NCBI GenBank assembly: GCA_021463645.1 | Contig: JAJTYI010000004.1 | Location: forward strand, 46,277-110,276 | DNA length: 64,000 nucleotides | Reading direction: 5' to 3' | From: a bacterium | GTDB taxonomy: Bacteria; Patescibacteriota; Dojkabacteria; B142; OLB20 | Part shown: positions 28,456-49,510 of the stretch, piece by piece | Layout of the letters: every line of letters begins with the position of its first letter | Position numbering within the stretch: the stretch's first letter is position 1 | Made by a program: the position numbers and the translations under genes | The notes under the pieces: model-generated | The model's input: only the letters and a program-made list of their open reading frames with translations | Database searches by the model: none | Told to the model about the DNA's origin: nothing

Positions 28456-29127
28456 ATGAAAAACTTATTAATTATTGAAGATGATCTTCAACTTGCATTT
28501 ACTCTAAGAGAGTCTCTAAAACAACATGGATTTAATACTACCATAGTAGACAACGGTAGAAAAGGTTACAAATACGCGATATCGAAACATTTTGATTGTC
28601 TTCTCGTTGACTTTAAGCTCCCTGAAATGAATGGTGATGAGATTATCAATAATCTCAGAGTTAGAGATATTGAAACTCCAGTACTTATGTTGACAGGTCA
28701 GGCATCCTCAGAACATCTTGCTAAAAGCTTTCGAATCGGTGTAGATGATTACCTGTCAAAACCTTTCTCCCATATCGAATTGACTGCACGTATTGAAAGG
28801 TTAATCAGCAAACCCCCTATGCAGAGATACTCAACTCATAAAATTGGCGAAATTGAAATCGATTTTCAAGGAATGTGTATTCGCAAAGATGCATTTTGTG
28901 AATCCTTAACAAAGAGGGAGCACAAACTACTAGAGTTTCTGATACTAAACAAAAATTGCATGGTATCTAGGGATAGGCTTGTTTCAAATGTTTGGCTTGA
29001 TAAGCCAGATATTACCCATAACACTGTTGATTGTTATATCTCGAACCTGCGAAAAAAACTAAAAAGAATAAAAGCAAAGGATTTCATCGAGACCTCGCAC
29101 GGTTATGGTTATCTTTGTAGGATTTAA
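28456..29127 (+). CDS. OmpR-family response regulator
   Basis: Receiver domain (DD...D...K pattern) plus winged-helix C-terminus (VDCYISNLRKKL...GYGY). Confidence 0.85.
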   Translation: MKNLLIIEDDLQLAFTLRESLKQHGFNTTIVDNGRKGYKYAISKHFDCLLVDFKLPEMNGDEIINNLRVRDIETPVLMLTGQASSEHLAKSFRIGVDDYLSKPFSHIELTARIERLISKPPMQRYSTHKIGEIEIDFQGMCIRKDAFCESLTKREHKLLEFLILNKNCMVSRDRLVSNVWLDKPDITHNTVDCYISNLRKKLKRIKAKDFIETSHGYGYLCRI

Positions 29128-29786
29128 ATTGGAAGTATAATTTTTACTAAGGTCCCTATACCGCTTAGGGATTGAAACTTCAGCACTCCCCCAAACCTGT
29201 TTTCAATGATATCTTTAGTTACTGGGAGACCAATACCAAAATGGGAGTCTTTTTCTGAATATCCATAATTAAAAATTTCTTTAATTAAATTATTGTCAAC
29301 TCCAATTCCATTGTCCAAGATTGTAATCACCAGTTTGTTTTGTAATTTGTTTATTGAAATTTTTATTTTCTTCGGTTTATGAGGGTTTTTCTCTAAAAGG
29401 GCATCAATTGAGTTCGAGATGATATTAGTTATTACTCTGTCCAATAAGAGTTTGTCATAATTAATCGCAAACTCCTCTTGTACGTCATACAAAAGCAATA
29501 TTTTGTTTTGTTCGATTATGAAGCCGAATTTATTTGTAACAATTTTACGTACAAACTCTTCTACTGAATACTTGGTGTTTTTATTATCAAAAAAATAGGA
29601 ATTATGGATTCTAGATATTGAGTGCAAGAATTCAAGTGAGTCAAGTGTTGCCACTATTGTCTTCTCGAGTTTGCGAGGATTCGTATAAATATGAGATTTC
29701 ATATTCTCTAGACTGATACCAATATTCGTAAGTGGGCTTGCAATGTCATGGATAAATACTTCAAGTTCGGTTGGTGCTCTGTTCAT
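29124..29786 (-). CDS. sensorless cytoplasmic histidine kinase (DHp + HATPase_c only)
   Basis: H-box FIHDIASPL; N/G boxes NIISNSIDA, DNGIGV, GIGLPV; no TM or sensor domain; 4-nt convergent overlap with the regulator gene. Confidence 0.8.
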   Translation of the reverse strand: MNRAPTELEVFIHDIASPLTNIGISLENMKSHIYTNPRKLEKTIVATLDSLEFLHSISRIHNSYFFDNKNTKYSVEEFVRKIVTNKFGFIIEQNKILLLYDVQEEFAINYDKLLLDRVITNIISNSIDALLEKNPHKPKKIKISINKLQNKLVITILDNGIGVDNNLIKEIFNYGYSEKDSHFGIGLPVTKDIIENRFGGVLKFQSLSGIGTLVKIILPI

Positions 29787-45132: not shown

Positions 45133-45336
45133 TTAATATAAATTAGTGGCACCTTTCATTTTGTATCTTTCTTCAAGTTCTTCCCATGAAAGTGCTGAAA
45201 CTGGTTTTGTCCAAGCTAGTGTAACTTCGTTTAACGATGTAGCTTTTATATTGTCTACGGTAGTGGTGTAGAATCTTGGCTGGTAAACACCGTCTAATAC
45301 TTTTGTCTCAAAATGTGTACTTTGTCTATTTCTCAT
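45133..45336 (-). CDS. hypothetical small protein
   Basis: 67-aa ORF; in tandem with 45380-45586. Confidence 0.4.
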   Translation of the reverse strand: MRNRQSTHFETKVLDGVYQPRFYTTTVDNIKATSLNEVTLAWTKPVSALSWEELEERYKMKGATNLY

Positions 45337-45379: not shown

Positions 45380-45586
45380 TTAAAGCATTTCAACAATCAT
45401 GTAATCTGTTGGAAGTTCTGATAACCAATCTTTTGTAGCCTTGTAAGTTGCACCGTTACTTTTTGGAGTATTTTTCTTTTCAATAACTGTTCGAAAAGCA
45501 AGCTTTGGTCCTGACATTTTTATAAATTTTGACTTGATGCTATCAAGTTCTTGTTCTTGTGAGATTGTTTTATTTACTTTGTACAT
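45380..45586 (-). CDS. hypothetical small protein
   Basis: 68-aa ORF; in tandem with 45133-45336. Confidence 0.4.
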   Translation of the reverse strand: MYKVNKTISQEQELDSIKSKFIKMSGPKLAFRTVIEKKNTPKSNGATYKATKDWLSELPTDYMIVEML

Positions 45587-45662
45587 AATGGTTAATTAAA
45601 AATTATGTACATAGTGTAGTTAAACTCTATGAAAGAAACATTTTAGAATTGTAATGATTGTG

Positions 45663-47513
45663 TTAAGAATTTTGCTTGAGGGGAAGTGTATAACTGAAAG
45701 TTGCACCTTTTCCGAATTCACTCTCTACATTAATTTGTCCATGATGAGCTTTCACAATTTCTTTCGATATAAATAGTCCGAGTCCGAGGCCTTCAATATT
45801 TCCTTTTGCCTTGTCGATTTGAAAGAATTTCGTAAATATTTTATCTAATTTTTCTGGGTGTATACCTTTACCAAAATCTTGTACAGATATTTTTACTTCA
45901 TCGTTTTCATCCTCAATTCTAACAATTATTTTACCTTTACTTGGAGAGTGTTTAATAGCATTCGTAAGTAAATTCATTGTGACTTGATTGATTCGATTTG
46001 GGTCCGCTTCAATCAATTTATCTGAAATCGTGCTTTCAAACTTTACTGTTCGACCCTTTAATATGGGATTTACAGCTAATATTGATTTCTTGACGTGGTC
46101 GACAATATCGAATTCTTTTATATTAAGTTTGAATTTATTGGTTTCGATTCTGCTGATGTCTAGCATAACATTAAGTAAATCGGTGAGCTTATTCACTTCG
46201 CGAGTTAGCACTGACATATATTTAGGGAAATCCTTATAATTATTAACCGTGGATTTTTGATTGAGTAGTTGTAGGTATCCTTTGATTATTGTCAATGGGG
46301 TTTTTATTTCGTGACTAGCGATACTAATAAATTCGTCCTTTTTTCTTTCTAATTTCTTTTGCTCGGTAAGGTCTACAAATAAGAATAGGAAAGACTTTTC
46401 ATCGGGATCAACTATAATTCCGCTAAGTAATACCGGGACAAGTGAACCATCTTTGTGTGCGATTTCGATTTCGATCGGACCCCCATAGCCGTATTTGAGG
46501 ATCTTCTTGATTGTGTCAGATTTTTGTTGGTGGTATGTGACAGGTACTACAGATATCAAGTCTAAATTTTTCTCTTTGACTTCACTCATCTTATAACCCA
46601 ACATTTTTAGGAATTTACGATTTGCATTCGTAATATGTCTTTCCGAATCAGTGAAAATTAAACCAACGATGTTAGAGTGAATGAAATTTGAGAATAAGAC
46701 TTGTTCTTTTTTTGCGCTCTTTTCGGATTTCTTCTTATCGGAGATATCTGTAGCAGAGATTATTAGAAATGGGTTTGAGTCGTCTGTATTTATCAGCGTA
46801 ACAATTACATTAACGTATATCTTGGTTTTTTCAGACAGGTGGAGTATATCTTCATAATTAGAAGTTTTGAGATCTGTAATATTCTCAATAGTTTTTATTA
46901 AATGTTCTTTTGAACCTGTAGAGTTGTTCCAAGGTGAACACTCGTAAATCTTCTTCCCTAGTAATTCATTTTCACCACCGGGAACTAATATTGAAAATGC
47001 TTTGTTTACTTCTAGCACTGTTCCATCTGTACTTGTTACTGCGAAGATTGTAGTGTTTTCTTCTGTAACATATTTAAATTTTTGTCTGGCATATTCTAGG
47101 TTTCTAGACGTCTTTCGTAGTTCTTTAAGATTATTAATAAATTTGGAGGTAACATATGCGATTATCAGTGACTGTATGAAAAACTCAATAGTAGGGACGA
47201 GGTAGGCAAAATCTGTTAATTTGAATGTTCCTGATGGTTGCATAAGGAAATAATGTGAACCGAGAGTGGTGATAATAACAGCAGAAAGACCAGCGTAAAA
47301 CTTCCCACTCATTGAATGTAAGATAACTACTAGTGTAAGAAGCTGAAAAGGGGCAGGGTACAGCCCTATTTCCAAATGAGTTCTGGAGAATATGATTATT
47401 GATGTAGTGACAATAGGTGAAAGTAAATATATATAAAACTTCAATATATTTAGAAAAGCGGATTTAAACATTAATTTCTCTTTTTTTTCTTTAATTGCTT
47501 TCTGGAACTCCAT
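45663..47513 (-). CDS. sensor histidine kinase (membrane DUF4118-like N-terminus, 2 PAS-like regions, HisKA, HATPase_c)
   Basis: H-box SIASHEIKTPLTIIKGYLQLL; N box LLTNAIKHS; G boxes DFGKGI, GLGLGL. Confidence 0.85.
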   Translation of the reverse strand: MEFQKAIKEKKEKLMFKSAFLNILKFYIYLLSPIVTTSIIIFSRTHLEIGLYPAPFQLLTLVVILHSMSGKFYAGLSAVIITTLGSHYFLMQPSGTFKLTDFAYLVPTIEFFIQSLIIAYVTSKFINNLKELRKTSRNLEYARQKFKYVTEENTTIFAVTSTDGTVLEVNKAFSILVPGGENELLGKKIYECSPWNNSTGSKEHLIKTIENITDLKTSNYEDILHLSEKTKIYVNVIVTLINTDDSNPFLIISATDISDKKKSEKSAKKEQVLFSNFIHSNIVGLIFTDSERHITNANRKFLKMLGYKMSEVKEKNLDLISVVPVTYHQQKSDTIKKILKYGYGGPIEIEIAHKDGSLVPVLLSGIIVDPDEKSFLFLFVDLTEQKKLERKKDEFISIASHEIKTPLTIIKGYLQLLNQKSTVNNYKDFPKYMSVLTREVNKLTDLLNVMLDISRIETNKFKLNIKEFDIVDHVKKSILAVNPILKGRTVKFESTISDKLIEADPNRINQVTMNLLTNAIKHSPSKGKIIVRIEDENDEVKISVQDFGKGIHPEKLDKIFTKFFQIDKAKGNIEGLGLGLFISKEIVKAHHGQINVESEFGKGATFSYTLPLKQNS

Positions 47514-47553
47514 TAATTTTTATATATATTCGTAAGATGTAGTAGAATTAATT

Positions 47554-47766
47554 ATGAAAAATAAAAATGATTTAAAAGCAAAAATACATAAAACCAAAAG
47601 CTCTATCACTGTAATTTCTGGTTATCTGCAGATGCTTAATGCAAATTTAATGAAATCTGAAGAACTTGAATTTATTGAAAAAAATCAAAAGTTAATTCAA
47701 AAAGCTAGTGATTCTTGTACCTCTTTGCTTGAACAAATCCAAAGTATCGAAAAAGACCTGAGTTAG
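47554..47766 (+). CDS. free-standing DHp (HisKA-like) mini-protein with conserved His
   Basis: KIHKTKSSITVISGYLQMLN aligns residue-for-residue with the adjacent kinase H-box ASHEIKTPLTIIKGYLQLLN; a second helix follows; 70 aa. Confidence 0.5.
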   Translation: MKNKNDLKAKIHKTKSSITVISGYLQMLNANLMKSEELEFIEKNQKLIQKASDSCTSLLEQIQSIEKDLS

Positions 47767-48443
47767 GTCTCAATCATCCTGTAGCCAAAACCTCTCAAAG
47801 ATTGTATGTAGCTAGTGTTTTTGTCCTCTAACTTCTTTCTCAATTTAGCAATATGAACGTCAACTATTCTGGTATCAATATCTGCAGAGTATCCCCAAAC
47901 AGAAAAGAGAATCTTGTCTCTAGTGCAAACTTTGTGACTATTTAGCATCAAGTACTGAAGTAATTGGAATTCTTTCCCGGTCAATGTAATCGGTTTACCA
48001 GCTTTTGTTACTTCGAGTGTTTCTGGATTTAGTACAAGGTCTTGGATTTTTAATATTTGTTTTTCATCCTCAATACCAGTATTGCGAAGCTTACTTTTAA
48101 CTCTAGCTATAAGCTCATCATTGTTGAATGGTTTGGTGATATAGTCGTCTGCACCCATATTTAGACAACGAATCAACATGTCTTTTGAATCATCCCCGGT
48201 AAGAATAACAATAGGTAATGTCTCGTGTATTTTACGAATTTCCCCACAAAGGGAAGAACCATGTATGTCTTCTAATCCTAAATCAAGGAGGATGAGTTTC
48301 GGGGTTTCATTCTTGAGGTATTTGAGTCCAGCAAGACCAGAGGTAAAGCCTTTTACGTTCATTTCTTCTGTTGTTTTGAATAACTCCTGCAAATATTCAA
48401 GGAGTTGTTTGTCGTCGTCAATTACTACTATTGTTGGTACCAT
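47763..48443 (-). CDS. OmpR-family response regulator
   Basis: Receiver domain (VVIDDD...LDLGL...K) plus winged helix (VDVHIAKLRKKL...GFGY); start at 48443 (MVPTIVV) or 48476. Confidence 0.85.
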   Translation of the reverse strand: MVPTIVVIDDDKQLLEYLQELFKTTEEMNVKGFTSGLAGLKYLKNETPKLILLDLGLEDIHGSSLCGEIRKIHETLPIVILTGDDSKDMLIRCLNMGADDYITKPFNNDELIARVKSKLRNTGIEDEKQILKIQDLVLNPETLEVTKAGKPITLTGKEFQLLQYLMLNSHKVCTRDKILFSVWGYSADIDTRIVDVHIAKLRKKLEDKNTSYIQSLRGFGYRMIET

Positions 48444-48801
48444 CTGATAGTTCTTTAATTTTAGATTGAAACTCAATTATATCAAATGGTTTCTTTAAAT
48501 AGTCGTTTACTTCAAGTTTTTTCACTACTTCGTCAAGATTTGTATCTGCAGAAACCACTAAAATCGGGACTTTGGGGTATTTCTTTTTCGTTTCTATGAT
48601 AACATCGTCGGCTTTTCCGTCACTAAGCCAGTAATCCATGATTACTATGTCTACTTTTTCCGTAGACATGAGCTCTTTGACACTTTCTTGGTTATCGCAT
48701 TTCATAACTTCGAAGTCCATATCCTCTAACATGATCTCCATAAGATCTTGTATTCCTGGATCGTCTTCGCAAACTAGTACATTCATTTCATCATCATACA
48801 T
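48418..48801 (-). CDS. single-domain (CheY-like) response regulator
   Basis: 127 aa; receiver only (VLVCEDD...IVIMDYWL...KP). Confidence 0.8.
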   Translation of the reverse strand: MYDDEMNVLVCEDDPGIQDLMEIMLEDMDFEVMKCDNQESVKELMSTEKVDIVIMDYWLSDGKADDVIIETKKKYPKVPILVVSADTNLDEVVKKLEVNDYLKKPFDIIEFQSKIKELSDGTNNSSN

Positions 48802-48970
48802 TTGAATTAACTCGCATAAATTATAAACTATTATAGGTGATGGATTGTGAAGCTTCTGTTAATTTTGTGTAAATTCGGCTTCTATTTTGATTTTCCATCA
48901 CTTTTTTCATCGCTAGAATTACTTCTAGCAGGTGTTGACTTGAATATTTCAACATCAATCATCTTTTGAA

Positions 48971-49510
48971 TCAAAGTCGCGCTTCCTCTGGCATAAATAT
49001 ATTCGCTAGGACATAATTCTTCGTACTAACAAGTTCGTCAATTTGCATCAAGTAAATATGTCCAAAATTATAAGCTCTCCCGACAAATGATTTTTCAATT
49101 CTAATGTGGTCAAAGTCATTCATTGTTAAAAGTAACTTGTTTCTATAAAAGAATCCTTCTTTAACTAATATCTTTCCTGGTATTTGGTCGATTGTATTCA
49201 AAGTAGTCTTTTGAATTGAGCCAGGTATTAATGTGTAACTTACAGATTGATAATTAAGGTAGCTCAGAACGAAATATACAAGATAAAAACCGACAAATAA
49301 ACTTATTACAATCATATTTACAGGTATTGCAATCGAGTCGAGGTAATCTGAAAGAAACATCATTAATAATATGAATACAAATAGTAATACAGCTAGTAAT
49401 ACAAATACCGAGAATAGGTTCGTGTAGAGAGGGATTACACTCCTTTTAATTAGTAATTCCTCTGATGGTTCTCTAACTACTTCTTCCTTAACTTCGGGAT
49501 CGTTATTCAC
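48971..49510 (-). CDS. membrane protein with bacterial PH (bPH_2/YdbT-like) domain
   Basis: Two TM helices followed by an approximately 80-aa region resembling membrane-flanked bPH domains; GTG start. Confidence 0.4.
   Translation of the reverse strand: MNNDPEVKEEVVREPSEELLIKRSVIPLYTNLFSVFVLLAVLLFVFILLMMFLSDYLDSIAIPVNMIVISLFVGFYLVYFVLSYLNYQSVSYTLIPGSIQKTTLNTIDQIPGKILVKEGFFYRNKLLLTMNDFDHIRIEKSFVGRAYNFGHIYLMQIDELVSTKNYVLANIFMPEEARL

Follow-up and report, generated by a model that had tools for sequence, protein, structure and literature searches.

A free-standing HisKA-type hairpin of 70 residues, encoded within a conserved four-gene signalling cassette of Candidatus Dojkabacteria

What does the phosphate-handling helix pair of a histidine kinase do when it is encoded alone, as a protein of 70 residues? 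The question is raised by an open reading frame (ORF) at positions 47554-47766 of the plus strand of a 64,000-nt stretch of contig JAJTYI010000004.1 (the window); its product and gene are called here the mini-protein and the mini gene. A first-pass annotation, made from the letters alone, had placed it between a sensor kinase and two response regulators as a free-standing protein resembling a dimerisation and histidine phosphotransfer (DHp) domain, and had suggested either a step in a phosphorelay or a partner that modulates the kinase. As judged by its sequence and predicted fold, the mini-protein is a HisKA-type DHp hairpin and nothing more, and most likely it passes or removes phosphate between the regulators of the cassette in which it is encoded.

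The single-chain AlphaFold2 model built from the family alignment is an antiparallel two-helix hairpin (helices 2-32 and 38-69, mean predicted local distance difference test score, pLDDT, 94.8), which bears out the second helix drawn by the first-pass annotation and places His12 on helix 1. The top Foldseek matches in the PDB were the DHp domains of LOV-histidine-kinase chimeras (TM score 0.80, root-mean-square deviation 1.3 Å), with E-values short of significance, a common outcome for a hairpin by itself. No HATPase_c domain was found by Pfam in the 70 residues, and the protein ends directly after helix 2.

The H-box had been said to resemble that of the adjacent kinase position by position, and this likeness is real. 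BLASTP aligned HKTKSSITVISGYLQMLN of the mini-protein with HEIKTPLTIIKGYLQLLN of the kinase (10 identities in 18, pairwise E 9e-6), and hhalign placed the family profile on the DHp of the same kinase over 49 columns, His on His, with a probability of 95.6% and E 1.1e-8. The comparison with Pfam HisKA (PF00512) came out divided: 17 of 18 family members match at E <= 1 (best 2e-6), and member P0038 has a precomputed PF00512 match, but the window mini-protein itself stays below the 26.9-bit cutoff (18.5 bits, E 0.0021). When all PDB sequences were searched with the family profile, the best match was an HK853-type kinase (E 0.047), accompanied by two weak and unrelated IKK-beta peptides. Similarity to known phosphotransferases was slight. 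An hhalign comparison with the ChpT DHp was negligible (E 0.017, probability 2.7%) and Pfam SPOB_a was matched marginally by 3 of the 18 members (best E 0.0018), while Pfam Hpt was absent from the matches of the window mini-protein at E <= 10 and from the 25 most-matched of 39 families in the scan of members. These comparisons clearly place the mini-protein nearer to ordinary HisKA kinases than to the DHp-type phosphotransferases Spo0B and ChpT, and it probably descends from a kinase DHp of its neighbour's subfamily.

The mini gene and its immediate neighbours are arranged as follows.

47554-47766, plus strand: gene of the DHp-only (HisKA-derived) mini-protein, 70 aa; helix 1 = residues 2-32, loop 33-37, helix 2 = 38-69.
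47587-47637, plus strand: H-box and predicted receiver-docking ridge, residues 12-28, HKTKSSITVISGYLQML, with His12 (47587-47589) as putative phospho-acceptor and the zero-entropy columns of the 32-member alignment.
47514-47553, no strand: divergent spacer of 40 nt between the kinase start and the mini gene start, with a -10-like hexamer TAGAAT at 47543-47548.
45663-47513, minus strand: cassette sensor kinase, 616 aa; Pfam finds a DUF4118 membrane domain, PAS, HisKA (H-box SHEIKTPLTIIKGYLQLL) and HATPase_c.
47763-48443, minus strand: OmpR-type response regulator, 226 aa, Response_reg and Trans_reg_C in Pfam, convergent with the mini gene.
48418-48801, minus strand: single-domain receiver, 127 aa, Pfam Response_reg at E 5.5e-17, lying 5' of the OmpR-type gene and overlapping it.

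The mini gene has an ATG start, 70 codons and a TAG stop. Its 3' end overlaps that of the OmpR-type gene by 4 nt (47763-47766), so that the stop codons TAG on the plus strand and TAA on the minus strand overlap. This overlap, the divergent kinase with its 40-nt spacer and the positions of the ORF and of the single-domain receiver are all as the first-pass annotation had them. The OmpR-type gene probably begins at the ATG at 48443, the call made in all relatives, and not at the TTG at 48476. In the single-domain receiver the acidic pocket (E12, D13), the phospho-acceptor Asp (in IMDYW), the Ser and the Lys are all intact, and an alignment of orthologues showed that both receivers retain the catalytic residues (acidic pocket, phospho-acceptor Asp, Ser/Thr and Lys) in 9/9 cassettes.

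Is such a short ORF a gene? An identical mini-protein is encoded on at least 23 contigs from independent metagenomes, and in seven close homologue clusters (74-94% identity) the length is exactly 70 aa without exception. When seven orthologous DNA sequences were compared, stops were absent from the annotated frame (+0) alone, and the variable columns are distributed 19/10/46 over codon positions 1, 2 and 3. The pooled Nei-Gojobori ratio of nonsynonymous to synonymous substitution rates (dN/dS) is 0.18 in the mini gene frame, compared with 0.28-1.9 in the five other frames, each of which carries stops, including every minus-strand frame of the region. Fisher tests of synonymous versus nonsynonymous change gave p from 1e-4 to 4e-9. 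The neighbouring genes gave dN/dS of about 0.015 (regulator), 0.02-0.07 (receiver) and 0.03-0.14 (kinase). The mini gene is under purifying selection, looser than that on its neighbours; the conservation in relatives that the first-pass annotation had proposed to look for was thus found, with a constant length and one open frame.

Against a chance ORF or a kinase pseudogene fragment stand its constant length, its frame-specific dN/dS and the conservation of its synteny, and both are rejected. Nor is there support for a structured RNA or another non-coding element in the gap: Rfam, run over the window, returned two tRNAs elsewhere and nothing in the mini gene region, and no terminator-like site was found in 45400-49200. 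Shine-Dalgarno-like motifs occur in the 25 nt upstream of 3 of the 40 checked gene starts in the window, all of them weak (the 40 include 10714, 24128, 39359 and 47554). Given this rarity across the window, the absence of the motif was dismissed as an argument against translation of the mini gene, and in this genome translation apparently starts independently of Shine-Dalgarno pairing.

The family to which the mini-protein belongs is narrow, with about 30 sequence clusters of 61-84 aa each. An exhaustive HMMER search of 1.84 billion representative proteins with the close-homologue profile returned 13 matches at E <= 1e-3, all 61-71 aa long and none of them a kinase. In a 5.8-billion-protein set, a first profile search returned 29 proteins and a second returned 21, none of them outside 61-84 aa; the second search brought no new member. 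No fusion to another domain was seen among the members from these searches, and the description of the mini-protein as a free-standing DHp-like protein without an ATPase domain therefore stands. A scan of genome contigs gave one true family locus (L020) together with Limisphaera full-length kinases carrying VISGYLQML, and a metagenome scan (alignment A4) gave two close loci and further full-length kinases.

Members with a name are Candidatus Dojkabacteria, a lineage of the candidate phyla radiation (CPR): two mini-protein homologues are so named, and members of the regulator's 90% cluster are named by NCBI as response regulator transcription factor [Candidatus Dojkabacteria bacterium]. The G+C content of the window is 35%. 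None of the curated families covers the mini-proteins; NCBIfam gives only weak matches, to the DHp regions of PhoR (25/32 members) and VanS (12/32). In their source annotations the members are 'hypothetical protein' or carry automatic mislabels, JGI names including 'signal transduction histidine kinase' and 'HisH'. This is a small-protein family that annotation now leaves hypothetical or mislabelled.

The arrangement around the mini gene was compared at all loci with enough flank, namely the window, the close relatives L001-L008 and L010-L015, and the divergent L020, L021, L022, L023, L024 and L031/L032. All of them show a cassette that runs from the single receiver through the OmpR-type regulator and the mini gene, on the opposite strand, to the DUF4118-PAS-HisKA-HATPase kinase. 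The cassette is kept across seven divergent clades, at 28-45% identity to the window mini-protein, and throughout these loci the mini gene abuts or overlaps the 3' end of the regulator gene. Synteny in relatives, also named as a check in the first-pass annotation, was therefore found, with two variants. In L020 the receiver gene follows the kinase instead of preceding the regulator, and in L021 (5618-5860, minus strand) and L023 (5619-5867, minus strand) the mini gene and the kinase are separated by a small Transgly_assoc gene that has the orientation of the kinase. The divergent start upstream lies 34-58 nt from that of the mini gene, and 133-140 nt from it in the cassettes with the Transgly_assoc gene. 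In the window the four genes span about 3.1 kb (45663-48801).

Which residues has selection kept? In the 32-member alignment (A5) only His12, Ser16, Gly23, Tyr24 and Gln26 are invariant, Leu25 and Lys43 being nearly so. We assigned the heptads ourselves, from the hydrophobic periodicity of the alignment, and this places the a/d core at positions 7, 11, 14, 18, 21, 25, 28 and 32 of helix 1 and 41, 44, 48, 51, 55, 58, 62, 65 and 69 of helix 2. The five invariant residues all fall outside this core and line up on helix 1 as an exposed stripe, at i, i+4, i+11, i+12 and i+14, with Thr, Ser or Ala at i+7, and at the equivalent positions the cassette kinases have invariant H, T, T, G, Y and Q (9/9). 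From EnvZ/OmpR rewiring and the HK853-RR468 complex, the contacts for receiver specificity on helix 1 are reported to lie at His+7, +11 and +12.

The residue next to the His follows a different pattern. His+1 is Lys in 15 members, Ser in 7, Glu, Asn and Asp in 3 each and Thr in 1, and is thus acidic in 6/32. Ser occupies His+4 in every member and Pro occurs at His+5 in none; the family box is HxxKS(S/Y/H), and that of the window, H-K-T-K-S-S, does not match the full H-(E/D)-x-x-(T/N)-P. In HisKA kinases, the acid beside the His activates it for attack on ATP, the Thr or Asn at +4 serves together with the His in the phosphatase reaction by positioning and activating the hydrolytic water, and phosphotransfer relies mainly on the receiver Asp (PMC7005713). 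Since the acid at His+1 is not conserved and the stripe is retained, the mini-protein appears to have lost the requirements of autophosphorylation and kept those of docking, phosphotransfer and dephosphorylation.

This pattern bears on the idea of a split kinase, in which an ATPase domain on another protein would phosphorylate His12 in trans from ATP, for example that of the cassette kinase or of a 220-aa kinase encoded at 29124-29786. Such an arrangement has precedents: in a SMART survey 3.66% of HisKA proteins were without HATPase_c and were proposed as possible split kinases, and EnvZ works in vitro with its two domains on separate polypeptides (PMC3591291). A paper on the Hik36/Hik43 split CheA proved to have no bearing here. 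We nevertheless judge it very unlikely here, given the acid at His+1 in so few members and the absence of an ATPase-only protein from the window and the cassettes, where the HATPase_c proteins (45663-47513 and 29124-29786) each have an H-box of their own.

What might the hairpin pair with? A continuous hydrophobic a/d seam runs along both helices, and oligomerisation of the mini-protein is likely on this basis. One possible partner is the kinase itself: a hairpin replacing one kinase DHp would give a mixed bundle with one ATPase domain and one competent His, and output would be lowered or retuned by dominant-negative titration. The homology of the mini-protein to the DHp of the neighbouring kinase, the similar core hydrophobics and the tight, divergent linkage to the kinase gene at all loci would suit this explanation. 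There is also a precedent in RetS, which reportedly acts on GacS through direct kinase-kinase contact. It is described as blocking GacS autophosphorylation (PMC4866733). The conservation argues in the other direction, as the invariant residues are exposed and lie outside the core and interface, and the core positions vary conservatively. Helix 2, which makes up a large part of a DHp dimer interface, differs strongly from that of the kinase, and in close relatives it is the ends and loop of the mini-protein that vary, the kinase DHp remaining invariant. A pure binder would, moreover, have no need of an invariant His and Ser. Heterodimerisation with the kinase therefore seems to us improbable.

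The core also contains a cysteine, Cys55 (47716-47718), present in 26/32 members; the others have Ser, Thr, Asn or Tyr at this position. It occupies a predicted a/d position in the same layer as His+2, one turn from His12, and in the predicted dimer a facing pair of Cys55 might form a disulfide or confer redox control.

The explanation that we favour, although we put it at slightly under an even chance, is that a homodimeric bundle of the mini-protein docks the cassette receivers and swaps phosphoryl groups via His12, as the second-histidine (H2) element between the single receiver and the OmpR-type regulator. Two hairpins would pair into a four-helix bundle, and this bundle would offer the receivers a kinase-like ridge on helix 1, composed of the His, a small or polar residue at both +4 and +7, Gly at +11, Tyr at +12 and Gln at +14. 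Because it has no ATPase domain and its His+1 acid is not conserved, the mini-protein presumably cannot make phosphoryl groups; it would only take them from, or give them to, receiver aspartates. Phosphate would flow reversibly from the kinase to the receiver, to His12 and to the OmpR-type regulator, with the mini-protein as a histidine phosphotransferase of Spo0B/ChpT type in minimal form; through its invariant Ser at His+4 it would probably be something of a phosphatase as well. The steps that we infer here are dimerisation, the docking of receivers, the phosphorylation of His12 and the direction in which phosphate moves. The cassette contains exactly the four parts of a His-Asp-His-Asp relay. 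A role in receiver docking with a phosphorylated His is favoured over that of a pure kinase binder because the exposed stripe is common to the mini-protein and the kinase, the autokinase acid is lost and the receiver sites are intact.

The invariant Ser at His+4 is, however, equally compatible with a phosphatase. A DHp-only dimer might dock the phosphorylated OmpR-type regulator, the single receiver or both, and hydrolyse the phosphate (with Ser16 and His12) or sequester the protein as a kinase-mimicking decoy, so resetting or damping the pathway. His and Ser, both invariant, match the HisKA phosphatase positions, and HK853 without its catalytic and ATP-binding (CA) domain has phosphatase activity in vitro (PMC7005713); the loss of the kinase-specific acid at His+1 fits as well. 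A comparable four-gene system is RedCDEF of Myxococcus, made up of a kinase, two receiver proteins and a kinase-like protein that does not autophosphorylate. The last of these accepts phosphate from one receiver protein and strips it from the other, acting as a phosphatase on one regulator (PMC2755868). The parallel is a partial one: RedE is a protein resembling a histidine kinase, not a 70-aa hairpin, the two systems are related neither in lineage nor in domain set, and RedD is a dual receiver. Other observations speak against a phosphatase or decoy. The cassette kinase has a full HExxTP motif and should itself be a bifunctional phosphatase; characterised phosphatases have Thr or Asn at +4 and not Ser; the constant co-inheritance of the single-domain receiver is unexplained unless that receiver is the target; and the absolute invariance of the His fits phospho-acceptance at least as well. 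We regard a phosphatase or decoy, the chief alternative to the relay, as possible but rather unlikely.

Several further points weigh against a relay through His12. The docking ridge on helix 1 is common to the mini-protein and the kinase, so the kinase could phosphorylate the OmpR-type regulator directly and an obligate relay would be unneeded; a kinase that may not be insulated from this regulator would equally suit a phosphatase or decoy. Spo0B and ChpT retain a C-terminal pseudo-ATPase domain and Asp at His+1, neither of which the mini-protein has, and its sequence likeness to ChpT (E 0.017, 2.7%) and Spo0B (3/18, E >= 0.0018) is negligible. The antisense gene, with its start 34-58 nt from that of the kinase, suggests expression reciprocal to that of the kinase, which would fit an antagonist better than a stoichiometric relay partner. 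Two other comparisons did not help to decide. The criteria for intermediate-type receivers given in PMC9981736 (a FATGUY motif, a variable switch Tyr) do not discriminate, as the single receiver keeps the switch Tyr and is without FATGUY, and covariation between mini-protein, kinase and receiver, looked at across nine cassettes, was phylogenetically confounded and underpowered.

In its boldest form, the relay would have a 70-residue DHp-only hairpin as the second histidine of a four-protein chain and the smallest phosphorelay component known, in the ultra-small genomes of Candidatus Dojkabacteria; we consider this a doubtful though serious possibility. If true, the pseudo-ATPase domain kept by Spo0B and ChpT would be dispensable in nature, the antisense placement would make expression of kinase and shuttle mutually exclusive, a built-in genetic toggle, and the mostly conserved core Cys near the His could add redox control. 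Should either the relay or the phosphatase role hold, the mini-protein would be the smallest natural module of DHp-type phosphate handling.

How does this protein compare with known systems? Spo0B and ChpT resemble it in combining a kinase-derived DHp-type hairpin and a phosphorylatable His with the lack of an autokinase. Each of them links a single or intermediate receiver to an output regulator, and the mini cassette likewise pairs a single-domain receiver with a DNA-binding regulator. ChpT is in addition a dimeric DHp-based phosphotransferase whose H-box, HDFISP (PDB 4fmt), has Ser at His+4 as in the mini-protein. Both differ from it in their size of about 190-250 aa, in their C-terminal CA-like domain and in their Asp at His+1, whereas the mini-protein has 70 aa, one domain and a variable His+1. 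The genes of Spo0B and ChpT are not known to be linked to those of their partners. Both proteins are thought to have been derived from histidine kinases by decay of the ATPase domain, and the present family would be the end point of such decay, with the domain wholly lost and a self-sufficient 70-aa module left.

Domain A of EnvZ (67 aa) forms a homodimeric four-helix bundle and, like HK853 without CA, is a bare DHp hairpin of the size of the mini-protein. These fragments are laboratory truncations with the full H(E/D)xx(T/N)P box, whereas the mini-protein represents a natural, independently evolving family. HK853 without CA stays active on its regulator (PMC7005713), which makes it, like ChpT, a precedent for the role proposed for the mini-protein. 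Sda, a 46-aa helical hairpin encoded apart from its kinase, binds the KinA DHp; it differs in that it is not DHp-derived and has no catalytic His, and it was not returned by the family profile search of all PDB sequences. The histidine-containing phosphotransfer (HPt) proteins Ypd1, ArcB-C and LuxU carry a local motif HxxKG(S/A)S, compared with HxxKSS in the mini-protein, a resemblance that would be partly inherited from HisKA (HE[IL][KR]T). They are monomeric four-helix bundles of about 120 aa and not homologous to DHp, in contrast to the two helices and 70 aa of the mini-protein; the proposed H2 role would be the same. A small residue at His+4 is shared (PMC6341664).

A 'stand-alone HisKA', that is, HisKA without HATPase_c, is a recognised category in censuses of two-component systems (PMC4618731; PMC3591291). 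The category lumps together every HisKA protein without HATPase_c, whereas the mini-protein belongs to one hairpin-only family. A full-text literature search found no characterised natural family consisting only of a hairpin of about 65-70 aa with a fixed four-gene context. From the sequences, then, the mini-protein would not be categorically new as a DHp-based module for phosphotransfer or phosphatase activity; the novelty would reside in the hairpin-only size and the fixed four-gene context, within a CPR lineage. With this family one can ask, in a minimal natural system, which properties a DHp requires for receiver recognition and for phosphate transfer or removal, and with the four partners within about 3.1 kb its reconstitution in vitro should be straightforward. 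It also means that a lineage of the candidate phyla radiation keeps a four-component signalling cassette.

The mini gene lies antisense within what otherwise resembles a receiver-regulator-kinase operon, a feature that the first-pass annotation had passed over. Since two divergent promoters do not fit into a spacer of 34-58 nt, the kinase is probably transcribed antisense across the mini gene, either by read-through from the receiver and regulator genes or from a promoter inside them. This geometry implies transcription that would be overlapping and possibly mutually interfering. A promoter scan gave TTTATA-18-TAGAAT before the mini gene, the TAGAAT lying 5 nt 5' of the ATG and being kept in close relatives. 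A TA(A/G)AAT-like hexamer at -11/-12, 5-6 nt before the mini gene ATG, is found at 9/12 loci, divergent ones included, with TATACT in L024. The loci with the hexamer are as follows.

47543-47548: the hexamer of the window.
Relatives: L007, L010, L014, L015, L017, L021, L022 and L024.

The mini mRNA may thus be leaderless. Neither promoter nor terminator counts exceeded the shuffled expectation. In relatives other than the window a TTTACA...TGTAAA inverted repeat lies just upstream.

Some further observations concern the family and its relatives. L020, from a metagenome-assembled genome (MAG) labelled uncultured Candidatus Saccharibacteria bacterium, has the full cassette and a 68-aa family member; either the family reaches beyond Dojkabacteria or the MAG label is imprecise. 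The Transgly_assoc product of L021 and L023 is a membrane stress protein of the GlsB/YeaQ type. The segment VISGYLQ(M/A)L of the mini-protein is also present in full-length kinases of unrelated bacteria (L018/L019/L027, Limisphaera; L030), the Limisphaera example being a receiver-kinase fusion, IHDINGPLTVISGYLQMLNQRL, and the other a PhoR-like kinase. Because of this occurrence the segment is a feature of a HisKA subtype and not unique to the family.

Beside the cassette, two small ORFs of 67 and 68 aa (45133-45336 and 45380-45586, both on the minus strand) lie directly 3' of the kinase on the same strand. Neither has a Pfam match. The pair is also called in L001, L003, L005, L007, L008, L010, L014, L015 and L024, and in L011/L012 the second is 45 aa long; both may belong to the same transcription unit or regulon as the cassette. 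Directly 5' of the receiver gene and on the same strand, 48971-49510 (minus strand) encodes a hydrophobic protein that is 179 aa long here and 209-213 aa in the calls made for relatives; it matches no Pfam family and is kept beside the cassette in close relatives and in L024.

The window holds a second two-component pair, an OmpR-type regulator (Response_reg and Trans_reg_C) at 28456-29127 on the plus strand and a convergent kinase at 29124-29786 on the minus strand, the two overlapping by 4 nt. This kinase, of 220 aa, is without a sensor domain, and Pfam finds only HATPase_c in it. Its N-terminus has an H-box, FIHDIASPLTNI (H-D-x-x-S-P), with Ser at His+4 as in the mini-protein and ChpT.

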